64,000 bases of DNA from Lachnospiraceae bacterium (GTDB taxonomy: Bacteria > Bacillota > Clostridia > Lachnospirales > Lachnospiraceae), in NCBI GenBank assembly GCA_045597325.1, contig JAZLJJ010000011.1, positions 14,426-78,425 of the forward strand. The letters are read 5' to 3'. Position numbers and translations under genes: made by a program. The notes under the pieces were generated by a model, which was not told where the DNA came from, searched no databases, and saw only the letters and a list, made by a program, of their open reading frames with translations. Shown here one piece after another: positions 16,330 through 61,314 of the stretch. How positions within the stretch are numbered: the stretch's first letter is position 1; the number at the start of each line of letters is the position of its first letter.

Positions 16330-17301
16330 ATGGAGAAATTTCATGAATTTTGCGAAACGCTGAGAACCGGGACGGAAGAGACAATGGGAACCGGGTATGA
16401 GGTGTCGCTTCGAACGGTGAAGAAGAATAACAATGTGACTTTGACGGGACTGATGATTCGGGAGGATGGGGCCAATGTCATTCCGACCATTTATCTGGAT
16501 CCGTATTATGAGCAGTATCTGGAGGGAAGATTGCTGACGGGAATCGAAGAAGAGATTCTTGATATTTATCGAAAGAACCGTGTGCCCCGGCAGACAGAAC
16601 TGAGTCTGGATTACGAGTCCGTAAAGGAGCGGATTTTCTTTTTGATGATGAATCGCGGCCTGAATCACGAAATGTTAGAATCCATGCCGCATGTGGAAAT
16701 CGGTGATTTGGCGGTTGGATTTCAGTGGATTGTTGATTTGGAGGAACGGCAAATCGGTGCTGTGAGGATTACCGAAGATCAGACGGCCATGTGGAATGTG
16801 ACAACGGAAGAACTGATTCGGGATGCACTGAACAATACGGTGCGTTCCCTGCCGCCGGTGCTGAAAAGCATCGAGGATGTACTGCGGGAAATTCTGATTG
16901 GGGATTCGGGACAGGACGGCAATAAGGAAAATGCGGAGAAACGGGACGAAATCATTCGATTATTGGGAGAAGAGACGGATCGAAAGACATTTCCGATGTA
17001 TGTCCTGTCCAACGAAACCGCACGGCTCGGGGCATCGTCTCTGCTGTCGCTTCCGTTTCTGAATCGGTTCCGCGATACCATCGGAGAGGATTTTTGGATT
17101 CTTCCGTCCAGCATTCATGAGGTCATTCTGGTTCCGGAATCGGAAGTGGAAGACCGGGAAAAACTGAAACAGATGGTACGGGAAATCAACGAGACCCAGG
17201 TGCCGATTCAGGAATTTTTGTCGGATGAGGTGTATCTGTACAGTGAATTTGAGAAACTGATACCCGATTCGTTCCGGACAAGACTGCTGCAGGCCGGTTG
17301 A
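16330..17301 (+). CDS. hypothetical protein, DUF5688-like
   Basis: The ORF is open from 16297 and the first ATG is at 16330. The N-terminus ...KKNNNVTLTGLMIREDGANVIPTIYLDPYYEQY resembles DUF5688 proteins of Lachnospiraceae (recall only). Start uncertain and RBS weak. Confidence 0.5.
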   Translation: MEKFHEFCETLRTGTEETMGTGYEVSLRTVKKNNNVTLTGLMIREDGANVIPTIYLDPYYEQYLEGRLLTGIEEEILDIYRKNRVPRQTELSLDYESVKERIFFLMMNRGLNHEMLESMPHVEIGDLAVGFQWIVDLEERQIGAVRITEDQTAMWNVTTEELIRDALNNTVRSLPPVLKSIEDVLREILIGDSGQDGNKENAEKRDEIIRLLGEETDRKTFPMYVLSNETARLGASSLLSLPFLNRFRDTIGEDFWILPSSIHEVILVPESEVEDREKLKQMVREINETQVPIQEFLSDEVYLYSEFEKLIPDSFRTRLLQAG

Positions 17302-17420
17302 TGCTGTTTGAGCAAGACTGCTGCAGGCAGCTGACGTTGTTTGAGCAAGACTACTGCAGGCCGGTTGACGCTGTTCGGACAAGACTGCTGCAGGCCGGCT
17401 GACACTGTTCGGGCAAAATG
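17281..17420. repeat. tandem repeat, 33-34 bp x 4, starting inside the last codons of the upstream CDS
   Basis: CAAGACTGCTGCAGG recurs at 17289, 17323, 17356 and 17390. Unit 1 holds the TGA stop (17299-17301). Confidence 0.9.
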
Positions 17421-24542: not shown

Positions 24543-25420
24543 CGATGGCAGAGTTTCATTCTGACATAACCTATGAGGATTTTCATCCGACCGTGCTGTA
24601 CTGCAGCCGCGTTCGTGATGCCAGACTGACGTATTATCATTCGCATTCCATTCTGGAAATTGCGTACATCCTGTCGGGACGCGGACAGTACCTTGTGGAC
24701 GGGGTCACGTATGAGGTTTCGCAGGGAGATTTGCTGGTTTGTAATCCGGGCGTGATGCACCAAAGTATCATTACCAACCCGGCCGACCCGACGCTGGAAT
24801 TTGTTGCCGGCCTGTCCGATATTCATTTTCTGGACATGGAGCCGAATCACATTCAGACGCCGAACGGAAGCCCCGTCATTTCCCTGAGCAATGAGCTGAA
24901 GCGGGAAATCAGCCGGTGCTGCTATGAGATTATCGATGAAAATATGTCCACGCAGCCCGGACGGTATTATCTCGTTCAGGCGCAAATGATGAAAATGCTG
25001 ATTCTGATTTATCGCTCCATCACCGAAAAGCCGAGAGATGAAATCGTTGGCGTTACGTTCGAAAGTTATTCGAAAAATTATGTTGTGCAGAAAATTATTC
25101 AGTATCTGAAGGCCAATTATTCGCAGCACATTTCGCTGGACCAGATTGCACAGAATATGTATCTGAGCCCGGTGTACATTTCCAAAATTTTTAAAGAAAA
25201 AACAGGCGATTCCCCGATTAATTATCTGATTCAGATTCGACTCGGGAAGGCCAAGGAAATGCTGGAAGAAAACCGCGGAAGTATTCGGATGATTGCGGCA
25301 CAGGTCGGTTATGACGACGTGTATCATTTCAGTAAACTGTTTAAAAAGCATTACGGTGTGTCCCCGTTGTTTTATCGGAAATCCGTCATCGGAGATGCGT
25401 CGGCCGGCTTGGAAGAATAG
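24539..25420 (+). CDS. AraC-family transcriptional regulator (cupin + HTH)
   Basis: Cupin-like N-terminus and a C-terminal HTH_AraC ...GDSPINYLIQIRLGKAKEML...FSKLFKKHYGVSP. It overlaps the ung stop by 4 nt (ATGA). Confidence 0.88.
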   Translation: MTMAEFHSDITYEDFHPTVLYCSRVRDARLTYYHSHSILEIAYILSGRGQYLVDGVTYEVSQGDLLVCNPGVMHQSIITNPADPTLEFVAGLSDIHFLDMEPNHIQTPNGSPVISLSNELKREISRCCYEIIDENMSTQPGRYYLVQAQMMKMLILIYRSITEKPRDEIVGVTFESYSKNYVVQKIIQYLKANYSQHISLDQIAQNMYLSPVYISKIFKEKTGDSPINYLIQIRLGKAKEMLEENRGSIRMIAAQVGYDDVYHFSKLFKKHYGVSPLFYRKSVIGDASAGLEE

Positions 25421-25550
25421 GAAATTGCGGGAACGGCGGCCGAGCCGGTGAGGACAATGCGGGAACGGCGGCTGAGCCGGTGAGGACAATGCGGGAACGG
25501 CGGCCGAGCCGGTGAGATGACGGCAGTGCGGCACGCGCCGGAATTGCGGG
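25400..25550. repeat. tandem repeat, 32 bp x 3 plus a partial fourth, directly after the AraC-family stop codon
   Basis: TGCGGGAACGGCGG recurs at 25426, 25458 and 25490 (and 25535). The last ~20 nt of the CDS resemble a diverged unit. Confidence 0.9.
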
Positions 25551-35479: not shown

Positions 35480-37693
35480 ATGAATCAAAAAACAGTAAAA
35501 AAATGGATGTGCTTACTCAGTGTGCTGTGTTGTCTGATGCTCGGTAACCGGACGACAGGGACGGCTTTGGCAGAGGCTGAAGTACCGGATACCGTAACAG
35601 CAGAGGTGGCAGCGAAAGAAACTACGGAAACAGCGAAAGAGACTACGGATGCGGAGCCGGTGGCAGCAGTGGATGAATCATTTGCAGAAACCACAGAGGC
35701 CACCAATATTGCAAGCGGTACCGGCTGGTATTTGGATCGTGCCGGATGCCTGCATCTTACAGGAAAAATAGAAGAAATTGGCTGGAAAGATTACAAATCG
35801 AATATTATAACAGTTATCGCTGAGACGGGTTCATCACTCGGACAGGATGGAAGAAAAGTGTTTATGGATTGTAATAATCTCGTATCTGCTGACTTAAGTA
35901 AGTTGGATACGTCGAATGTACTTGATATGTCCGATATGTTTAACGGATGTTATTCGTTAACAACATTGGATGTCAGTACATGGGATACGTCGCATGTGGC
36001 ACATTTCATTCGTATGTTTTACGACTGTACAGTATTAACGACATTGGATGTCAGTGAGTGGGATATGTCGGGCGCGATATTTATTGATGACATGTTTGGG
36101 GAGTGTCGTGCATTAACAACCTTGGATGTCAGTAAGTGGCGTACACCGCATTTATACAGCGCGACATATACGTTTTTTCGTTGTAGAAAATTAACGACCC
36201 TGGATGTCAGCAATTGGGATACATCGAACGTGACGGATATGAGCGGAATATTTGATGGTTGCGAGGCAGTGAAGGAATTGGATGTCAGCAAGTGGGATAC
36301 GTCAAACGTGACGAGAATGGGCAAAATGTTTATGTGCTGTTATTCCGTAACGGAATTGGACGTCAGCAAGTGGAATGTATCAAACGTGACGAGTATGCAG
36401 AACATGTTCAATGAGTGCTCGGCTTTATCGGAATTGGATGTCAGCAAGTGGAATGTATCAAACGTGACCAATATGAGCAACATGTTTAAGCGTTGCAGTT
36501 CGTTGACGGCACCGGCTGTCAGCAATTGGGACATGTCAAGCGTGACAGATATGGATTACATGTTTTCATATTGCAGTTCATTAACTACACTGGATCTCAG
36601 CGGGTGGGATATCTCGAAAGTGAAAAGACTGGATGACTTTGTTTGGGAGAGTAATTCGCTTCATACGATTATTTGGCCCAAACAGGTAAAGGATGATCTT
36701 AGGCTGAAATGGCTGGCAGAGGAATTGCTCGAGTATTGCCCTGTATGGTGTGATTCCAAAACGGGGAAGATGTATTCTGATGAGAAGGTAATGCAGAAAT
36801 TATCCGGTTCGGTGACACTTGTTGTCCATGGCATTGATATCCGGATAAGTAATGGTTGGGAGGGAGTTATCCTTAAGTGGACTCCGGTAGCAGGCAGCCC
36901 GGTAACGGTCTTTCGTAAGGAAGCCGATATTTATCGAAATTCATCCGACGATTTGAGTGGTCTGGATTACACTAGGTATAATGGCAAGTGGACGAAAATG
37001 GCAACCACGACGGAAGGGGTGTATTATGACAAAGAGGTAACAAACGCAAAAGGATATGATTATATTGTGTTGCGAAACAATGCGACAACGCCGCGGTCGA
37101 TACCTCTGAATATATGCCGTTATGTTCAGCCTCCGACGATAGAGTCAGTGACCAATGTGGCCGGCGGAGTGAAGGTGAGCTGGTCGTCTGAGAGCTATAG
37201 GCCGGACGGATTCTTCGTGTATCGCAAAGACACTCAGAACGGTACGTGGCACATGATTGGCTCTACCCAAAAGAATCTGACCTATACGGATACAACCGTG
37301 GAAAACGGAGTAGTATACTATTATGCCGTGAAAGAATTCTATAAAGAGACGAAAACGTACCGAAGCTACAGTGCTTCCAGTTCCGCAAAGAATACAGTTT
37401 ATGCGAAGAATGTATTTATTTCCGCGATTTCCAATCCGCGTCCCGGTGATTTCACGGTGGTTCATTCCGTAAACGACAAGGCAACCGGATACCAGATTGC
37501 ATACAGTACCAATTCCAATATGAGCGGCTCCAAGTACGTGACTCAGGCGGGAGGAAACTATACAACCATTAAGGCAACCGGACTGACAAAGGGCAAGACA
37601 TATTATGTCATGGTACGCCCGTATAAGACCGTCGCCGGTTACACCTTCTACGGTGCATGGAGTGCCAAGAAGGTGGTTACCGTTACGAAGTAA
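35480..37693 (+). CDS. secreted surface protein: DUF285/BspA-type leucine-rich repeats + FN3-like repeats
   Basis: Signal peptide MNQKTVKKWMCLLSVLCCLM...ALAEA. About 10 copies of a 25-aa repeat L..LDVS.WDTSNVT.M..MF..C (about 35900-36640). C-terminal modules such as GVKVSWS...G(Y/F).VYRKDT..GTW..IG....LTYTDTTVENGVVYYYAVKA are FN3-like. Confidence 0.8.
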   Translation: MNQKTVKKWMCLLSVLCCLMLGNRTTGTALAEAEVPDTVTAEVAAKETTETAKETTDAEPVAAVDESFAETTEATNIASGTGWYLDRAGCLHLTGKIEEIGWKDYKSNIITVIAETGSSLGQDGRKVFMDCNNLVSADLSKLDTSNVLDMSDMFNGCYSLTTLDVSTWDTSHVAHFIRMFYDCTVLTTLDVSEWDMSGAIFIDDMFGECRALTTLDVSKWRTPHLYSATYTFFRCRKLTTLDVSNWDTSNVTDMSGIFDGCEAVKELDVSKWDTSNVTRMGKMFMCCYSVTELDVSKWNVSNVTSMQNMFNECSALSELDVSKWNVSNVTNMSNMFKRCSSLTAPAVSNWDMSSVTDMDYMFSYCSSLTTLDLSGWDISKVKRLDDFVWESNSLHTIIWPKQVKDDLRLKWLAEELLEYCPVWCDSKTGKMYSDEKVMQKLSGSVTLVVHGIDIRISNGWEGVILKWTPVAGSPVTVFRKEADIYRNSSDDLSGLDYTRYNGKWTKMATTTEGVYYDKEVTNAKGYDYIVLRNNATTPRSIPLNICRYVQPPTIESVTNVAGGVKVSWSSESYRPDGFFVYRKDTQNGTWHMIGSTQKNLTYTDTTVENGVVYYYAVKEFYKETKTYRSYSASSSAKNTVYAKNVFISAISNPRPGDFTVVHSVNDKATGYQIAYSTNSNMSGSKYVTQAGGNYTTIKATGLTKGKTYYVMVRPYKTVAGYTFYGAWSAKKVVTVTK

Positions 37694-37793
37694 ACGCGGC
37701 GCCCGGAGTGCAGCGAAGCCGATTGCATTGACGAAATAAACAGCGTCCTGAGTGCAGCAAAAACGATTACATTGACGAAATAAATGCTGCATA
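37660..37793. repeat. tandem repeat, 44-46 bp x 3, re-iterating the last 11 codons plus the stop of the surface-protein gene
   Basis: Unit starts (GAGTGC) at 37660, 37706 and 37750. The units translate as WSAKKVVTVTK*, SAAKPIALTK* and SAAKTITLTK*. Confidence 0.9.
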
Positions 37794-38521: not shown

Positions 38522-38593
38522 TTTTGTAGTCTTGCAAAGGTAGTCGGTGTGTGATGTTCTACTGTTGTGCGCATAAAGAAAAGGAGTGCCATC

Positions 38594-39289
38594 ATGAGAG
38601 TATCGGTATGTGATGATTTGATAGAGGCTATCGAGGACTTGAAAGAGAAACTGTCGCATTTCCAGGAAATTACGGCCATTGATACGTATTCGGATTTGGA
38701 TGTTTTTGCAAAGAGCATTGGGAAAATTGAATACGACATTTGTTTCATGGATATTGACTGGGGAAAAGAGAAAATGCTTGGAATTGATTTCGCCGAGCGG
38801 CTGAAGGGGTGTTCCATCATTTTCGTGACGGCGTATCCGATGGAATTTGCCGAGAAAATATTTGGTAAAGATTATACGCCGAGCGGCTTCCTGATTAAGC
38901 CGGCGAAGGAAGAACAGATTGCGATTCTGCTCGGGAAGGTTCTGCGGGAACGTCGGATGAAGATGAAAACCGTTTCGTTTTCCATCAATGGCAAATGCCG
39001 GGTGACGAAGTTTGAGGACATCGTTTTTCTGGAGGGAGTTCTGCACAAAACAAAAGTGCATCTCAGTGACCGGAAGGAACTGGTTGTAAATAAATCATTG
39101 TCGGAGCTGTCGGAGTCGATGCCGGAGTATTTTCTGAGGTGCCACAAAAGCTTTGTGGTCAATCCGTTGTACGTCGAGACTTTGAAAGCGGACAAGGTGA
39201 CGCTGAAGACGTCCGAGGCGATTTCCGTCAGTCGGGCGAGGCGGGCGGACACGAAGGCACAGTTTCTGGATTATTTGGCAAATCATTAA
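38594..39289 (+). CDS. LytTR-family response regulator
   Basis: Receiver MRVSVCDD...ICFMDIDW...FVTAY and a C-terminal LytTR domain ...IVFLEGVLHKTKVHL...FLRCHKSFVVN. AAGGAG RBS. Confidence 0.85.
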   Translation: MRVSVCDDLIEAIEDLKEKLSHFQEITAIDTYSDLDVFAKSIGKIEYDICFMDIDWGKEKMLGIDFAERLKGCSIIFVTAYPMEFAEKIFGKDYTPSGFLIKPAKEEQIAILLGKVLRERRMKMKTVSFSINGKCRVTKFEDIVFLEGVLHKTKVHLSDRKELVVNKSLSELSESMPEYFLRCHKSFVVNPLYVETLKADKVTLKTSEAISVSRARRADTKAQFLDYLANH

Positions 39290-39311: not shown

Positions 39312-40139
39312 ATGAAGAGGTACTGGTGGTTATTTGTGCTGTTTCCGATCAGCCAGTTTTTTCTGATAATCAATGCGTATCAGACAGTCGGGCATTTGGA
39401 CAGAAGGGGCATACTGGGGCTGATTCTGGCGCCGATTGCGGATGTGCTGGTGCTGTTCCTCATTTTGAGTTCGCAGCGTAAGGAGAAGGTGGAATACGAG
39501 CTTCAGAAGGTTCAGATGCTGCGGGAAGCGGAGGCACGTCGAAATGAAAATCTGGAACGCAGCCAGAAGGCGTTTCTGGAACTGAAAGAATCGCTGGCGT
39601 CGGAATTTGAACGGGTGAAAGAATCCATGAAGAATTCGGATGACAACGGTGAGAGCGACTGGAAACATTTTGAGGATGTCCTGGAATCCACGCGACATAC
39701 ATTTTATACGGAAAATGTCATTGCCAACGCGATTTTGTCGGAAAAACAGAAGCAGTGCAGGCAGGAACTTCAGACGGAGATTGAGATTTCCGCATCGCTG
39801 TCCCGGCATGTTTCCTTTGATCCGATGCAGTTGTGCAGCCTGTATGCAAATTTGATTGATAATGCGATGGAAGCAATTGCCGAGCTTGAGCCGGAGAAAC
39901 GGTTTATCCGGCTGGAGACCGGCTACAACGCCGGAAATATGTGGATTCGTGTCAGTAACCCGGCCGATGAGAGTCATGTCGTGAGAACGCGTCGGGAAGG
40001 ACACGGATACGGAAGGAATATTTTGGAATCGATTGCCAATCAGCACAACGGCGTGTACAAGGCGGAATACAAGAACGGAATATACGAAGCATCTGTGATG
40101 GTTGAAGCAGAGGAAACGGGGGCCACACGTGATATTTAA
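39312..40139 (+). CDS. GHKL ATPase-domain protein of the AgrC/LytTR-associated kinase type: 2 TM + coiled coil + ATPase, no recognisable phospho-acceptor H-box
   Basis: C-terminal YTENVIANAILSEKQ...LYANLIDNAMEA...EGHGYGRNILESI (N and G boxes). The position where relatives carry RHDxxNH reads FLELKESL. Confidence 0.7.
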   Translation: MKRYWWLFVLFPISQFFLIINAYQTVGHLDRRGILGLILAPIADVLVLFLILSSQRKEKVEYELQKVQMLREAEARRNENLERSQKAFLELKESLASEFERVKESMKNSDDNGESDWKHFEDVLESTRHTFYTENVIANAILSEKQKQCRQELQTEIEISASLSRHVSFDPMQLCSLYANLIDNAMEAIAELEPEKRFIRLETGYNAGNMWIRVSNPADESHVVRTRREGHGYGRNILESIANQHNGVYKAEYKNGIYEASVMVEAEETGATRDI

Positions 40140-40932
40140 CAAGGTTTTGCTGGTGAGCATGTGGGCGTACAATTTCGTATATGCCTATGGGTTGTGTGCG
40201 TTTGTTATGAAACGGCGGTTTGGAAAGGTTGCCAGTGTTTTTCTGTTTCTCGGACTCAGTTCGGTGATAATCGGGTTTCGCATCTGGTTTGTCATCGGAG
40301 GCGGACAGGATGCGGTGCCGGTGGGAAGCATGGTGACGATGTTGGGGTGCTTCTCTCTGCAGGTTGTTTTGTTTCGCGGAAAATGGTTCCGGCAGCTGAT
40401 GAATTATGCAATTGTATCGGTGTTTGCGATACTGGCGGAAATTCTCGCGTCGTTCTTTGCTTCGAGCATTACGGGAAGTGTGGAATCATTTAACTTTAAC
40501 GATCCCGGATTCCGGGTCGGCATGTTACTGTTCTTCCCGTCTTTGTCGGCGATGATATATCCGACGATTGTGCTCTTGCGAAAAGTGAACCGTTTATCGG
40601 TCGGCGAAGTGATCGGTGCGTATTCGTGGCTTGTGGTGACATTTCCGTTAAGCCAAATGTTCCTGATTAATCTCTACACCGGCGTCACGACGGTAGTGAA
40701 ACCGATTGGTTTGATTGGTGCACTGGTCGGAATTACATCCGATTGTCTGCTGATTTGGTTCCTCGATAAGGAGCACCAGAAATTCCGACTCCGGAAAGAG
40801 CTCGAAGAAGAAAAACAAATGCTGGAATTTGAGGAAATGACGTATCGGGACCTGATGTCGCAGCAGGAAGAAATCGCGCAGCTGCGGCACGATTACCGGA
40901 ACCAGATGATTGCACTGAAAGCGATAAAATGA
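40102..40932 (+). CDS. polytopic membrane protein ending in a histidine-kinase H-box (LRHDYRNQMIAL) with no ATPase domain
   Basis: About 6 TM helices. The last two TM helices plus the coiled coil are paralogous to the N-terminus of the preceding gene (WLVVTFPLSQMFLINLY vs WLFVLFPISQFFLIINAY). Start uncertain (TTG 40102, GTG 40129 or ATG 40159). Confidence 0.6.
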   Translation: MKQRKRGPHVIFNKVLLVSMWAYNFVYAYGLCAFVMKRRFGKVASVFLFLGLSSVIIGFRIWFVIGGGQDAVPVGSMVTMLGCFSLQVVLFRGKWFRQLMNYAIVSVFAILAEILASFFASSITGSVESFNFNDPGFRVGMLLFFPSLSAMIYPTIVLLRKVNRLSVGEVIGAYSWLVVTFPLSQMFLINLYTGVTTVVKPIGLIGALVGITSDCLLIWFLDKEHQKFRLRKELEEEKQMLEFEEMTYRDLMSQQEEIAQLRHDYRNQMIALKAIK

Positions 40933-41030
40933 ACGGGCACCGAAACCAGATGATGGCACTGAAAGCGATAAAATGAACGATTATCGAGACCAAATATTGG
41001 CATCGAAAAAGCAATAAAGTGAAATAAAAA
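40888..41030. repeat. tandem repeat, 44 bp x 3, re-iterating the H-box codons plus the stop codon
   Basis: ACCAGATGAT at 40901 and 40945, ACCAAATATT at 40989. The units translate as HDYRNQMIALKAIK*, GHRNQMMALKAIK* and DYRDQILASKKQ*. Confidence 0.9.
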
Positions 41031-41257
41031 ACCGAAAAAGTGACAAGCTATTTTGCAAAAACATCGACTTGTTGAGCATGAATAAAAGTGCTCGACAGAC
41101 CGGTGTTTTTTTTGTATGCTAATTCTGCCGGGAAATCCGCCGTTTCTGCATGTGAGGTTGAATGAAACATGGGAAAATGGGAAGATTAAGGGGAAGTATA
41201 TGGCCGGGTGAGGGCTGTATATGAGATGACAAAAACTAAAAAACGGAGGAATGAATT

Positions 41258-42417
41258 ATGAGAAGATTTATGTTGTTACTTTTGTCGGTTTTCTTGCTGG
41301 CAAGCGTATCTGCTTGTGGGAAGACGGATAAAAATGATACGCAGAGGCAAGATGACAAACAAAAGACCACTCAAATACCGACGGTGGCACCGACTGCAAC
41401 GCAAGTGCCGTCACCGATGCCTACAAAAGAAACAACTATTCCAACAAACCCGCCGACACCGGAACCAACGGATGGTGTGATTCTAAAACGGGGAAAATGT
41501 ATTCCGATGTGAAGCCATTGCAAGCAATATCCGGTCCGGTGACACTTATTTGTCATGGCATTTCTGTTCAAGTAGGAAATGGTTGGGAAGGAGTTACCAT
41601 TAAATGGACTCCGATACAGGGACAATCGGTAACGGTATATCGTAAAAGGATGTATCTTGAGCAAGACCCATCTGCCGATTGGAATGGTACGAGAAGTTAT
41701 GACCTCGACACAGAGTGGACGAAACTGGCGACTACGACGGCAGGAGGGTATTATGATAAATCGGTTACAAACGGAGACGGATATGAGTATCGTGCGGTAC
41801 TAAACAAGGCGAAAACACCGCAGCGGACGTATTCGAGTATATGCCGTTACGTTCAAGCACCGACAATCCAGTCGGTGACCAATGTGGCCGGCGGAGTGAA
41901 GGTGAGTTGGTCGGCAGTGGATGGTGCAAACGGATACATAGTATATCGCAAAGACACTCAGGCAGGAACATGGCATATGATTGGTTCCACACAGAAGAAT
42001 CTGACCTATACGGATACAACCGTGGAGAACGGAGTGGTATATTATTATGCCATCAAGGCATTCTTTTATGAGATGGGAAAATCCAGAAGTTACAGTGCTT
42101 CCAGTTCTGCTAAAAACACGGTTTATGTGAAGAACGTATTCATTTCGTCCATTGCAAATCCGCGTCCCGGTGATTTCACGGTGGTTCATTCCGTCAATGA
42201 CAAAGCAACCGGATACCAGATTGCATACAGTACCAATTCCGATATGAGCGGTTCCAAGTACGTAACTCAGGCAGGTGGAAGTTATACGACTATTAAGGCA
42301 ACCGGACTGACAAAGGGCAAGACATATTACGTCATGGTACGCCCGTATAAGATCGTCGCCGGTTATACCTTCTACGGTGCATGGAGCGCCAAGAAAACGA
42401 TTACGTTGACGAAGTAG
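41258..42417 (+). pseudogene. lipoprotein signal/PT-linker ORF (41258..41512) out of frame with an FN3-like ORF (41497..42417): either a frameshifted paralog of the C-terminus of 35480..37693 or a -1 frameshift-dependent gene
   Basis: Lipobox LLASVSAC and a Pro/Thr linker in frame A. Frame B is homologous to residues ~WCDSKTGKMYSD...VTVTK of the upstream surface protein. The two frames overlap by 16 nt, and the overlap contains G_GGA_AAA. Confidence 0.6.
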
Positions 42418-52362: not shown

Positions 52363-53373
52363 ATGAGCAGTTGTTTTGTTCCCGAAGGCTATAAGGCCGT
52401 ATTGGGAAATCGGGAAACACAGATCGCAATTAAGAAGGTAAAGGATTATTTTCAGAGAGAACTGGCAACGCAGCTGAATCTGCATCGTGTGACGGCACCG
52501 TTGTTTGTAACACCGGAGTCCGGTCTGAACGATAACCTGAACGGTGTAGAGCGTCCGGTTGTGTTCGGAATTCGTGAAAATGATGATCACCCCGTGGAAA
52601 TCGTGCATTCTCTTGCAAAATGGAAGCGTATGGCACTGGCCAAATACGGATTCCGCGTAGGCGAAGGTCTGTATACGGATATGAATGCCATTCGCCGGGA
52701 TGAGGATACCGACAATATTCACTCCATTTTCGTGGATCAGTGGGACTGGGAAAAGGTGATTACCCGGGAGCAGAGAACGGAAGAGTATCTGAAAAAGACG
52801 GTGAAGGGTGTGTATGAAGCACTTCGCGTCACCGAAAAATATATTGCCAACCAGTATGATTATGTTGAGTGCATTTTGCCCGAGGAGATTACGTTTATTA
52901 CGTCGCAGGAACTGCTGGACCGCTATCCGGACAAGACCGCAAAGGAACGTGAATATGCGGCCGCAAAGGAATACGGAGCGGTTTTCATTATGAAAATCGG
53001 CGATTTGCTCAGCAACGGAGAACGCCATGACGGACGCGCACCGGACTATGATGACTGGCAGTTGAACGGAGATATCATGGTATATTATCCCGTCAATGAT
53101 ATTGCATTGGAATTGTCCTCCATGGGAATCCGCGTCGATGAAGAAGCGCTGCTGAGCCAGCTGGAAAAAGCCGGCTGCCCGGAACGGAAGGAAATGGAAT
53201 TCCAGAAGGCTTTGCTGGAGGGCAAACTGCCGTACACGGTCGGCGGCGGAATCGGACAGTCCCGAATCTGTATGTTCTTCCTGCGGAAGACGCATATCGG
53301 AGAAGTACAGGTTTCGGTATGGCCCGCAGCGGATGTCGAATATGCCCGCGCGCATGGTGTGGAGCTGTTATAA
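52363..53373 (+). CDS. asnA: aspartate--ammonia ligase
   Basis: RRDEDTDNIHSIFVDQWDWE and GGGIGQSRICMFFL. Confidence 0.92.
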   Translation: MSSCFVPEGYKAVLGNRETQIAIKKVKDYFQRELATQLNLHRVTAPLFVTPESGLNDNLNGVERPVVFGIRENDDHPVEIVHSLAKWKRMALAKYGFRVGEGLYTDMNAIRRDEDTDNIHSIFVDQWDWEKVITREQRTEEYLKKTVKGVYEALRVTEKYIANQYDYVECILPEEITFITSQELLDRYPDKTAKEREYAAAKEYGAVFIMKIGDLLSNGERHDGRAPDYDDWQLNGDIMVYYPVNDIALELSSMGIRVDEEALLSQLEKAGCPERKEMEFQKALLEGKLPYTVGGGIGQSRICMFFLRKTHIGEVQVSVWPAADVEYARAHGVELL

Positions 53374-53510
53374 TCGGTCCGGCGGACGTGCCAGATACCG
53401 AAACGGAAAATATGCCCGCGCGCATGGCGTGGAGCTGTTATAATCGGTCCGGCGGACGTGCCAGATACCGAAACGGAATATGCCCGCGCACATGGCGTGG
53501 AGCGGATATA
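53338..53510. repeat. tandem repeat, 68-70 bp x 2.5, re-iterating the last 11 codons, the stop and the 3' flank of asnA
   Basis: TATGCCCGCGCGCATGG(T/C)GTGGAGCTGTTATAATCGGTCCGGCGGACGTGCCAGATACCGAAACGGAA at 53341 and 53411, with a third partial unit from 53479. Confidence 0.95.
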
Positions 53511-60156: not shown

Positions 60157-61236
60157 GTGGAAGATCGTCGTCAAAAACTGTATAAGCACTTTTTGATTTT
60201 GATGTTGCTGGTTACGTTTCTGATTTTGTTCGTAACTTTTTGCCAGTATTTTCTCATTATCAAAATCAATAAGGAATACGCGGATATTACACTGAGCAGT
60301 TTCCTGCAGTATTATGTGGAAATACCGGCGGTGATTTACGGCGTTTCGTATATCGCCATGTGTTTTATACTGGATTCGCCGAATATTGCGTACAAATGGA
60401 AAGACCTTACCACAATTTTGTATTTGTGGATTTTATGTACGGTTATCTGTTTTGTAGGAAGCTATTCGCCGTCCATTTTCGGATGTTATTGTGTTCCGAT
60501 TGTGATGTCTACGATTTACGGGCGGCGCAAACTGTGTCGAATCACAGAGTCCCTTTGCGTTGTGACGCTGACGCAGTTTATGGGAACGGCGAGACTGATT
60601 CGAACCTGTACGGAACGAAGCGGTCTGCATGTCGGAATTGCGGTTCTGTTCCTGCTTGTATTCATTTTGTGCAATGAAATTCTGCTGGAATTTGTATTGG
60701 ACAACAATGACGAGATTCAGACTCACATGGATGATAAATCCAGACTTGCGATGAAACTCCAGAGAGAGCCGATGACGGGTCTTTACAACCATACGGCATT
60801 TTACGAATACCTGAACGAGTGCGTCAAAAAACGCGGTGAATCCCCGTTGACGCTGGCGGTTGTGGATATCGATAATTTCAAGAAAATCAATGATACATAC
60901 GGACACAATAACGGAGATGAGGTCATTTTGAATCTGGCCAGAACGCTGCAGAAATGGTGTGACGACTCCAATAATTACGTATGCCGGTACGGCGGCGAAG
61001 AGTTTGCGGTCATTTTCCCGAATGTGAAGGTGAAGCAGGCAAAGGAAGCCATGGAGCACGTACTGGAGGATTTCCGAAATACCACGTACAGCTGGCTGGA
61101 CGGAAACATCACGTTCAGCTGCGGCATTTTCCAGTTAAGCTCTTATACGATGACGGCCGATGAATTCTTTAAAGTGGCGGACAAGATGCTGTACAGTGCG
61201 AAGCACAACGGAAAGAACCAGTGTGTCAGCGGCTGA
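60157..61236 (+). CDS. membrane-bound diguanylate cyclase (GGDEF)
   Basis: About 5 TM helices. TGLYNH...VDIDNFKKINDTYGH..GD...RYGGEEFAVIF (intact GGEEF). GTG start. Confidence 0.88.
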   Translation: MEDRRQKLYKHFLILMLLVTFLILFVTFCQYFLIIKINKEYADITLSSFLQYYVEIPAVIYGVSYIAMCFILDSPNIAYKWKDLTTILYLWILCTVICFVGSYSPSIFGCYCVPIVMSTIYGRRKLCRITESLCVVTLTQFMGTARLIRTCTERSGLHVGIAVLFLLVFILCNEILLEFVLDNNDEIQTHMDDKSRLAMKLQREPMTGLYNHTAFYEYLNECVKKRGESPLTLAVVDIDNFKKINDTYGHNNGDEVILNLARTLQKWCDDSNNYVCRYGGEEFAVIFPNVKVKQAKEAMEHVLEDFRNTTYSWLDGNITFSCGIFQLSSYTMTADEFFKVADKMLYSAKHNGKNQCVSG

Positions 61237-61314
61237 CCGGAAACGGAAAAGGCTGACCGGAAACGGAAACCGGCTGACCGGAAACGGAAAAAGGCTGACC
61301 GAAAACGGAAAACT
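61231..61314. repeat. tandem repeat, 20-22 bp x 4, whose first unit contains the GGDEF-gene stop codon
   Basis: GGCTGACCGGAAACGGAAAA at 61231, 61251, 61272 and 61293. TGA 61234-61236 is the stop. Confidence 0.95.

Follow-up and report, generated by a model that had tools for sequence, protein, structure and literature searches.

The gene at 40129–40932 is, on the evidence of its sequence and its homologues, not a broken kinase; it belongs to a conserved family whose members are polytopic membrane proteins and end directly after the H-box helix. We consider it likely that this short gene is unbroken, that it most likely encodes the sensor of a split AgrC-type kinase, and that the tandem array across its 3′ end is a lineage-specific minisatellite in the 3′ UTR. 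The stretch of DNA analysed here, which we call the window, comprises 64,000 nt of the 2.3-Mb genome of a Lachnospiraceae bacterium (GCA_045597325.1, contig JAZLJJ010000011.1, positions 14,426–78,425, forward strand). The features on which the argument turns are the following, in window coordinates:

38567–39289, + strand: LytTR-type response regulator of 240 aa, the likely output (Pfam LytTR, 4.7e-16)
39312–40139, + strand: His-less ATPase subunit of 275 aa (Pfam HATPase_c_5, 5.4e-12)
40129–40932, + strand: putative short sensor/phospho-acceptor subunit (ORF list, homologues, AF2)
40889–40932, + strand: U1, ACGATTACCGGAACCAGATGATTGCACTGAAAGCGATAAAATGA; coding 3′ end, consisting of positions 2–3 of the His codon, then DYRNQMIALKAIK and TGA
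40933–40976, + strand: U2, ACGGGCACCGAAACCAGATGATGGCACTGAAAGCGATAAAATGA; non-coding, identical to U1 at 39 of 44 positions
40977–41022, + strand: U3, ACGATTATCGAGACCAAATATTGGCATCGAAAAAGCAATAAAGTGA; non-coding, 46 nt, decayed
41057–41113, + strand: intrinsic operon terminator, made up of a long hairpin and, after it, a T run at 41106–41113

A tandem array across the stop codon

Three abutting head-to-tail units of 44, 44 and 46 bp fill positions 40889–41022 at a constant period and with no DNA between them (unit boundaries were set by eye from the sequence). The first unit holds the last 14 codons of the gene together with its TGA (40930–40932). TRF reported the array at period 44 over 40889–41002 (2.6 copies, score 149) and the two good copies over 40895–40979 (95% match, score 156). 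A repeat search gave 89% identity between U1 and U2 over their two 44-nt copies, and a 38-nt unit pattern had two matches in the window, where 100 shuffles gave an expectation of 0.00. A metagenome contig from Logan, X4 (434 nt), covers 40882–41250 and contains all three units with point differences only. Together, these results bear out the triplicated 44-bp gene end that had been noticed in a preliminary description of this DNA. The unit translations given there, HDYRNQMIALKAIK, GHRNQMMALKAIK and DYRDQILASKKQ, each closed by a stop, are exact, and so is the shift of frame with each 44-bp period. It was also correct that decaying copies of the H-box motif follow.

The unit belongs to this locus only: blastn-short with both units found it nowhere else in the 2.3-Mb genome, and a dispersed or mobile repeat of a MIRU-like family was rejected because both queries led to a single genomic locus. 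MIRU-VNTR loci of Mycobacterium tuberculosis consist of 40–100 bp tandem units in non-coding operon DNA and may overlap the upstream stop codon. Their copy number and sequence vary between close strains, and MIRUs form a dispersed family with one consensus. Similar to these loci, the window array is a set of tandem units at the end of an operon gene and varies between close relatives. Unlike MIRUs, its unit derives from the last codons of its own gene and occupies a single locus, and the other arrays of the genome each have their own sequence.

Minisatellites across the genome

To place the array among others of its kind, we refer to a whole-genome TRF census of non-redundant arrays with a period of 25–100 bp and a score of at least 80. 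This census counted 261 arrays, or 11.4 per 100 kb, and the period was not a multiple of 3 in 112 of them. Against crude gene calls, taken as the longest non-overlapping ORFs, 28 of these out-of-frame arrays (plus 5 mixed) lay across a gene 3′ end, where 6 were expected at random, and 11 (plus 5 mixed) lay across a 5′ end, where 6 were also expected. A further 44 were intergenic (random expectation 7.5), and 23 fell inside a crude ORF call (random expectation 89). Arrays with an in-frame period were mostly within genes (106 observed vs 115 expected). Across the genome, about 45 distinct arrays begin 1–57 nt inside the end of a gene and run past its stop.

The simplest reading is that duplications arise everywhere, that in-frame ones are tolerated in genes and that out-of-frame ones survive chiefly where they lie outside genes or span the end of one, although the 23 out-of-frame arrays within crude ORF calls are left unexplained by it. 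Since an out-of-frame duplication across a gene end leaves the ORF to its first copy, the copying of the stop codon follows from this pattern of persistence. A duplication mechanism that targets 3′ ends is not needed, as the 3′-end share among arrays outside gene interiors is ~31% against ~27% at random; 5′ ends are about two-fold depleted in the same set. In samples of 100 kb, 1–5 arrays were counted in each of three other genomes, one from the same genus, one from the same family and one from the same order, with 0–2 out of frame; a close relative had 8 arrays, 7 of them out of frame. Judged from this small set of 100-kb samples, the minisatellite richness looks lineage-specific.

The window contains a second array of 44–46 bp, at 37650–37790, 3 kb upstream of the one described here. 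It triplicates the last codons and the TAA of a DUF285/LRR surface-protein gene, whose end reads WSAKKVVTVTK before the stop and is followed by two decaying copies. The relative holds the same DUF285 gene-end array (L003, 3571–3656). Further arrays in the window lie at 17279–17416, 25419–25516, 53338–53510 and 61230–61311.

History of the array in two close genomes

A contig search of genomes recovered only one close relative, the Lachnospiraceae MAG GCA_045641285.1 (G030), and the array is lineage-specific, present in this genome and that relative only. In that relative, the end of the second of two sensor genes is followed by three decayed units and then by the same flank and terminator, whose hairpin is kept. 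The window has three units to the relative's four; the make-up of the inner units differs and the 3′ flank is common. The two genomes share, without a difference, the first 15 nt after the stop, ACGGGCACCGAAACC, which form the start of U2; the array is therefore older than the split between them. Because unit number and inner composition differ between the two, the array must have kept turning over.

The last 29 nt of U2 in the window are a perfect copy of a functional gene end, in the MMALKAIK version found in the genes of the relative, whereas unit 2 of the relative is decayed. This difference suggests that unequal exchange or conversion took place recently in the lineage of the window. A U2 so well preserved needs recent conversion, re-duplication or else some constraint. 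In the relative, the units have lost their frames and stops and are decaying, and the window array is without RNA structure; we tentatively infer that units 2 and 3 have no function. The course of events we propose is that slippage or unequal recombination duplicated the last 14 codons and the stop codon in tandem. The first copy would have left the gene intact, the downstream copies would be untranslated and decaying, and unequal exchange would continually reshuffle them.

The two tandem sensor genes of the relative (L003, 6001–7638) are 50–70% identical in their bodies and 97–98% identical over their last ~180 nt, a pattern that suggests gene conversion or constraint by a common partner. The window gene combines the body of the first of these genes with the last 30 nt of the second. 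In the metagenome X2, the junction of the second paralogue with the conserved segment is present, which indicates that the second sensor is polymorphic in its occurrence. Homologous recombination in the conserved 3′ segment would plausibly explain how the second gene came to be present in some genomes and absent from others.

The shared gene ends, the chimeric window gene and the junction in X2 would also fit a different origin of the units, as traces left by recombination between sensor genes that are tandem paralogues, or as substrates for it; in such recombination, cassettes are gained, lost or swapped and extra ends are left behind. We regard this origin as unlikely. Exact head-to-tail units with a constant period and with neither cargo nor spacer are the signature of tandem duplication, and a homologous deletion between gene ends would yield one hybrid end and no extra ones. 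Moreover, no recombinase gene was seen in the ORF list among the ORFs adjoining the locus, distant loci with two sensor genes are without such units, and ~45 unrelated arrays of the same kind stand at other gene ends in this genome. Tandem duplication at the gene end, followed by decay, remains the reading we prefer.

The repeats as part of the 3′ UTR

U2 and U3 lie between the TGA and the predicted terminator, which is a 3′ UTR position. When the RNA of 40880–41110 was folded, the terminator hairpin was the sole strong structure (MFE −52.8, z = −3.6) and the repeat part was essentially unstructured. A scan of 40700–41300 against Rfam returned sub-threshold noise only, and a search for the locus among RNA-seq runs found none that contains it.

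LytTR regulators bind direct repeats, and a LytTR regulator is encoded in this operon. The units might be a cis element, either as LytTR binding sites, as a 3′ UTR RNA element or as the site of a −1 frameshift at A_AAA_TGA that adds copies of the H-box to the protein. The unusual preservation of U2 would agree with such a role, and a −1 slip on ATAAAATGA does put the next unit in frame. We nevertheless consider a cis element very unlikely. Read position by position, the unit agrees between its 22-bp halves at only 5 of 22 positions, which leaves no 21–22-bp sub-period, and the array precedes a strong terminator instead of lying in a promoter; the idea of LytTR binding sites was rejected on these two grounds. 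The array has no stable structure in the fold and no Rfam match, and it is absent from distant loci. As for frameshifting, the relative reads ATAAAGTGA, in which the slippery run is lost, and its units keep neither open frames nor stops. Programmed −1 ribosomal frameshifting was rejected because neither the slippery site nor the downstream frame is conserved in the relative. A minisatellite that happens to lie in the 3′ UTR is the reading we keep.

A short, putative sensor gene with a conserved end

From the GTG at 40129, the short protein has 267 aa; an upstream TTG at 40102 would give 276 aa. The GTG is the likely start, as homologues begin with MIFNK, and GAGGAAA is found 12 nt upstream of it. 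It overlaps the stop of the upstream ATPase gene by 11 nt, an overlap that suggests translational coupling of the two kinase halves. The AF2 model has 6–7 TM helices and one long C-terminal helix that carries the H-box, uninterrupted over residues 196–275 and with the best confidence at the C-terminus (mean pLDDT 65). Shallow alignments keep the confidence modest for this model and for that of the ATPase protein (mean pLDDT 65 and 62). Neither Pfam nor NCBIfam matched the short protein, and searches of PDB sequences with both family profiles gave nothing meaningful. The protein ends 13 residues past the H-box His, which is His254 in the 267-aa form; as it contains neither DHp helix α2 nor a GHKL ATPase, it is not a complete kinase.

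Five homologues of 257–269 aa share 93, 65, 55, 55 and 47% identity with the short protein. Their stops all fall at the same point to within two residues, just past the H-box (HDYxNQxxALKAxK and stop). Four of the five end in RHDY(R/Q)NQxxALKA(I/L)K and one in ALKAMRDR. The residues R262-H263-D264-Y265-x-N267-Q268 are invariant in 6 aligned sequences. Between loci, the last codons show many synonymous differences, with the peptide and the position of the stop preserved, and we take this as evidence of purifying selection on the short C-terminus.

A HMMER search with a profile of six sequences against 1.84 billion representatives gave 215 matches. The set we analysed has 154 proteins, consisting of the best 150 of the 215 and of four sequences from the first homologue search (P0001, P0002, P0004 and P0005), and it falls into two length classes, the short H-box form and the full-length kinase. 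An H-box without an N-box is found in 66 of the 154, which continue for 10–53 aa past the His. These short forms are themselves of two kinds: some extend ~10–25 residues past the His and have helix α1 only, like the window protein, and others extend ~34–53 residues and have α1 and α2, a complete DHp, with no ATPase. Full-length kinases of about 410–445 aa with a GHKL domain account for at least 47 of the 154. The short protein aligns to residues 68–261 of one of the full-length kinases, P0014, and the alignment continues through RHD(F/Y)xNQ.

One of the two readings offered in the preliminary description was that the duplication had truncated a once full-length kinase. On that account, the stops were introduced with the tandem copies, an AgrC-like kinase lost helix α2 and its ATPase domain, and the gene is now a pseudogene. 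Full-length relatives of ~430 aa do exist in the superfamily, and the stop of the ORF does fall inside the would-be DHp domain. However, homologues at 47–65% identity end at the same residue with no repeat downstream. Past the array, a terminator is found and no remnant of ATPase-coding sequence, the C-terminal peptide is under purifying selection, and 66 relatives are without a catalytic domain. The comparison of orthologous loci that the preliminary description had proposed found the same short ORF, with no repeats behind the stop in the distant homologues (both short genes of L007, and L010), an outcome it had itself named as refuting a link between the repeats and the short end. With homologues down to 47% identity sharing this end and the distant ones free of repeats, truncation by the duplication is refuted, and we judge the pseudogene account as a whole to be highly improbable. 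At the level of sequence comparison, the short C-terminal form is shown to be ancestral and the repeat to have arisen later. The second reading, in which a short H-box protein is the functional product, gains support from the conserved C-terminus and stop, from the relatives that have no catalytic domain and from the constant pairing with an ATPase protein and a LytTR regulator.

The array could in principle be an artefact of the assembly of this metagenome-assembled genome, which is a draft of 80 contigs; in Logan, unitigs break within the array and contigs are fragmented there, with one contig only spanning it. We give such an artefact a negligible probability: the units differ from each other (89% identity and lower), the independent contig X4 spans all three, which marks the array as real, and an independently assembled relative has the orthologous array.

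An ATPase partner without the histidine

In the protein encoded at 39312–40139, two TM helices and a long coiled coil are combined with a helical hairpin like that of a DHp and with a GHKL domain of the HATPase_c_5 type. At the position of the H-box, it reads LELKESL, in which Glu replaces His. It aligns to residues 162–421 of P0014, a span running from the last two TM helices through the coiled coil and the DHp to the ATPase, and ELKESL stands opposite KIRHDF. The motif LELKE(S/A)L, with an invariant Glu, is present in all 5 ATPase-partner sequences (4 distinct orthologues), and the N-box NLxDNAM and GHGYG are kept in the same sequences. On these alignments, the loss of the His from the ATPase protein is shown to be a conserved one.

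In the AF2 model of the ATPase protein (mean pLDDT 62), helices at residues 31–107 and 113–132 are joined by a loop and followed by an alpha/beta domain. In fold, it comes closest to the cytoplasmic module of AgrC (6e52, 6e95) and to the AgrC CA domain (4bxi, TM 0.67). The alignments of both proteins to P0014 and the AgrC-like fold indicate that both genes descend from a full-length AgrC-like kinase. On this descent, the short gene would have kept the His and lost the ATPase, and the gene at 39312–40139 would have kept the ATPase and lost the His.

A conserved neighbourhood

The regulator gene at 38567–39289 also matches Pfam Response_reg (2.8e-06, below the curated Pfam cut-off), and a LytTR response regulator was found in every related locus. 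In all five independent loci examined, the regulator (RR), the His-less ATPase protein and one or two short H-box genes occur together:

Locus 1, the window: regulator, ATPase and one short gene
Locus 2, the close relative, Lachnospiraceae MAG GCA_045641285.1 (G030/L003): two tandem short sensor genes
Locus 3, L005–L008: order RR, short, ATPase, short
Locus 4, L010: RR, His-less ATPase protein and short H-box gene(s)
Locus 5, the same-genus genome G007/L019: order ATPase, RR, short, short, with proteins 25–27% identical to the query

No AgrB or AgrD gene was seen adjoining the locus, and the upstream 245-aa ORF had no match to Pfam AgrB.

Downstream of the operon, an 84-aa ORF with a lipoprotein signal (41258–41512) overlaps a 306-aa ORF in another frame (41497–42417). 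At this position, the relative has a 321-aa gene and a separate 306-aa gene.

A proposed split AgrC-type kinase

The two proteins divide the parts of a kinase between them in the manner of a split kinase. The His-bearing protein has no ATPase and the ATPase-bearing partner has no His, and both genes are co-inherited with one response regulator at five independent loci. We propose that the short protein is the sensor and phospho-acceptor subunit of a split histidine kinase of the AgrC type, and that the ATPase would be supplied by the overlapping upstream gene at 39312–40139 with its Glu-for-His DHp-like hairpin. Within a membrane hetero-oligomer, the ATPase subunit would act in trans on the short protein and phosphorylate its His, and the phosphoryl group would then move to the LytTR regulator at 38567–39289. 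Both the physical complex and trans-phosphorylation are predictions that we draw from the sequences and their conserved pairing. A DHp four-helix bundle normally needs helix α2 from the His-bearing chain, and the short protein has α1 only. It could alternatively act as a regulator or as a phosphatase-like partner.

Histidine kinases divided in this way are known from other bacteria. In the Rv0600c/Rv0601c pair, the ATP-binding and His functions are divided between two proteins. With TcrA, this pair of M. tuberculosis makes up a system of two sensor kinases and one regulator (PMC3544749). CheA3/CheA4 of Rhodobacter sphaeroides is a split histidine kinase, and 3.66% of HisKA proteins are without an ATPase (PMC3591291). 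The window system resembles both CheA3/CheA4 and Rv0600c/Rv0601c-TcrA in having a His protein without ATPase, an ATPase protein without His and one adjoining regulator. It differs from them in that both halves are membrane proteins of the AgrC/HATPase_c_5 lineage. In contrast to known split kinases, both halves here retain the last two TM helices and the coiled coil, the His half has helix α1 only, with trans-phosphorylation predicted, and up to two different sensor halves go with one ATPase half.

Likeness to AgrC-AgrA of Staphylococcus aureus extends to the polytopic sensor, the H-box of the HD(F/Y)xN type, the GHKL domain of the HATPase_c_5 type and the LytTR regulator. AgrC is one polypeptide, unlike the two-gene system of the window, and sequence identity is very low. 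In the literature searched, we found no description of a split kinase of the AgrC/HATPase_c_5 type, which is weak evidence that none has been described.

Biological meaning

The repeat is an ordinary one, a lineage-specific minisatellite that is decaying in a 3′ UTR, and the gene system is the more interesting of the two. Still, the array carries a lesson for reading genomes, in that what looks like a truncation followed by decaying copies can come from a stop codon caught in a tandem duplication. The richness of this lineage in minisatellites could serve as a source of strain-typing markers.

One wider reading joins the repeats to the signalling system as one engine with exchangeable sensors. 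A single His-less ATPase would serve interchangeable sensors, and the ~180-nt 3′ segment together with the 44-bp copies would be the recombination substrate through which they are exchanged. We hold this reading, for which the chimeric gene end is the one positive sign, to be quite improbable. If it were true, the repeats would be a working part of a sensor-cassette exchange system and not junk.

The split kinase, which we favour, has a broader reach. Dozens of 50%-identity clusters in genomes and metagenomes encode AgrC-like sensors that stop after the phospho-acceptor helix, and the known members of these clusters are gut Lachnospiraceae. If the split kinase is true, a whole class of signalling systems linked to LytTR regulators is overlooked by annotation pipelines, which call the two proteins 'hypothetical membrane protein' and 'GHKL domain protein', and one ATPase with one or two sensors would be a tractable model of how sensing and catalysis are separated in histidine kinases.
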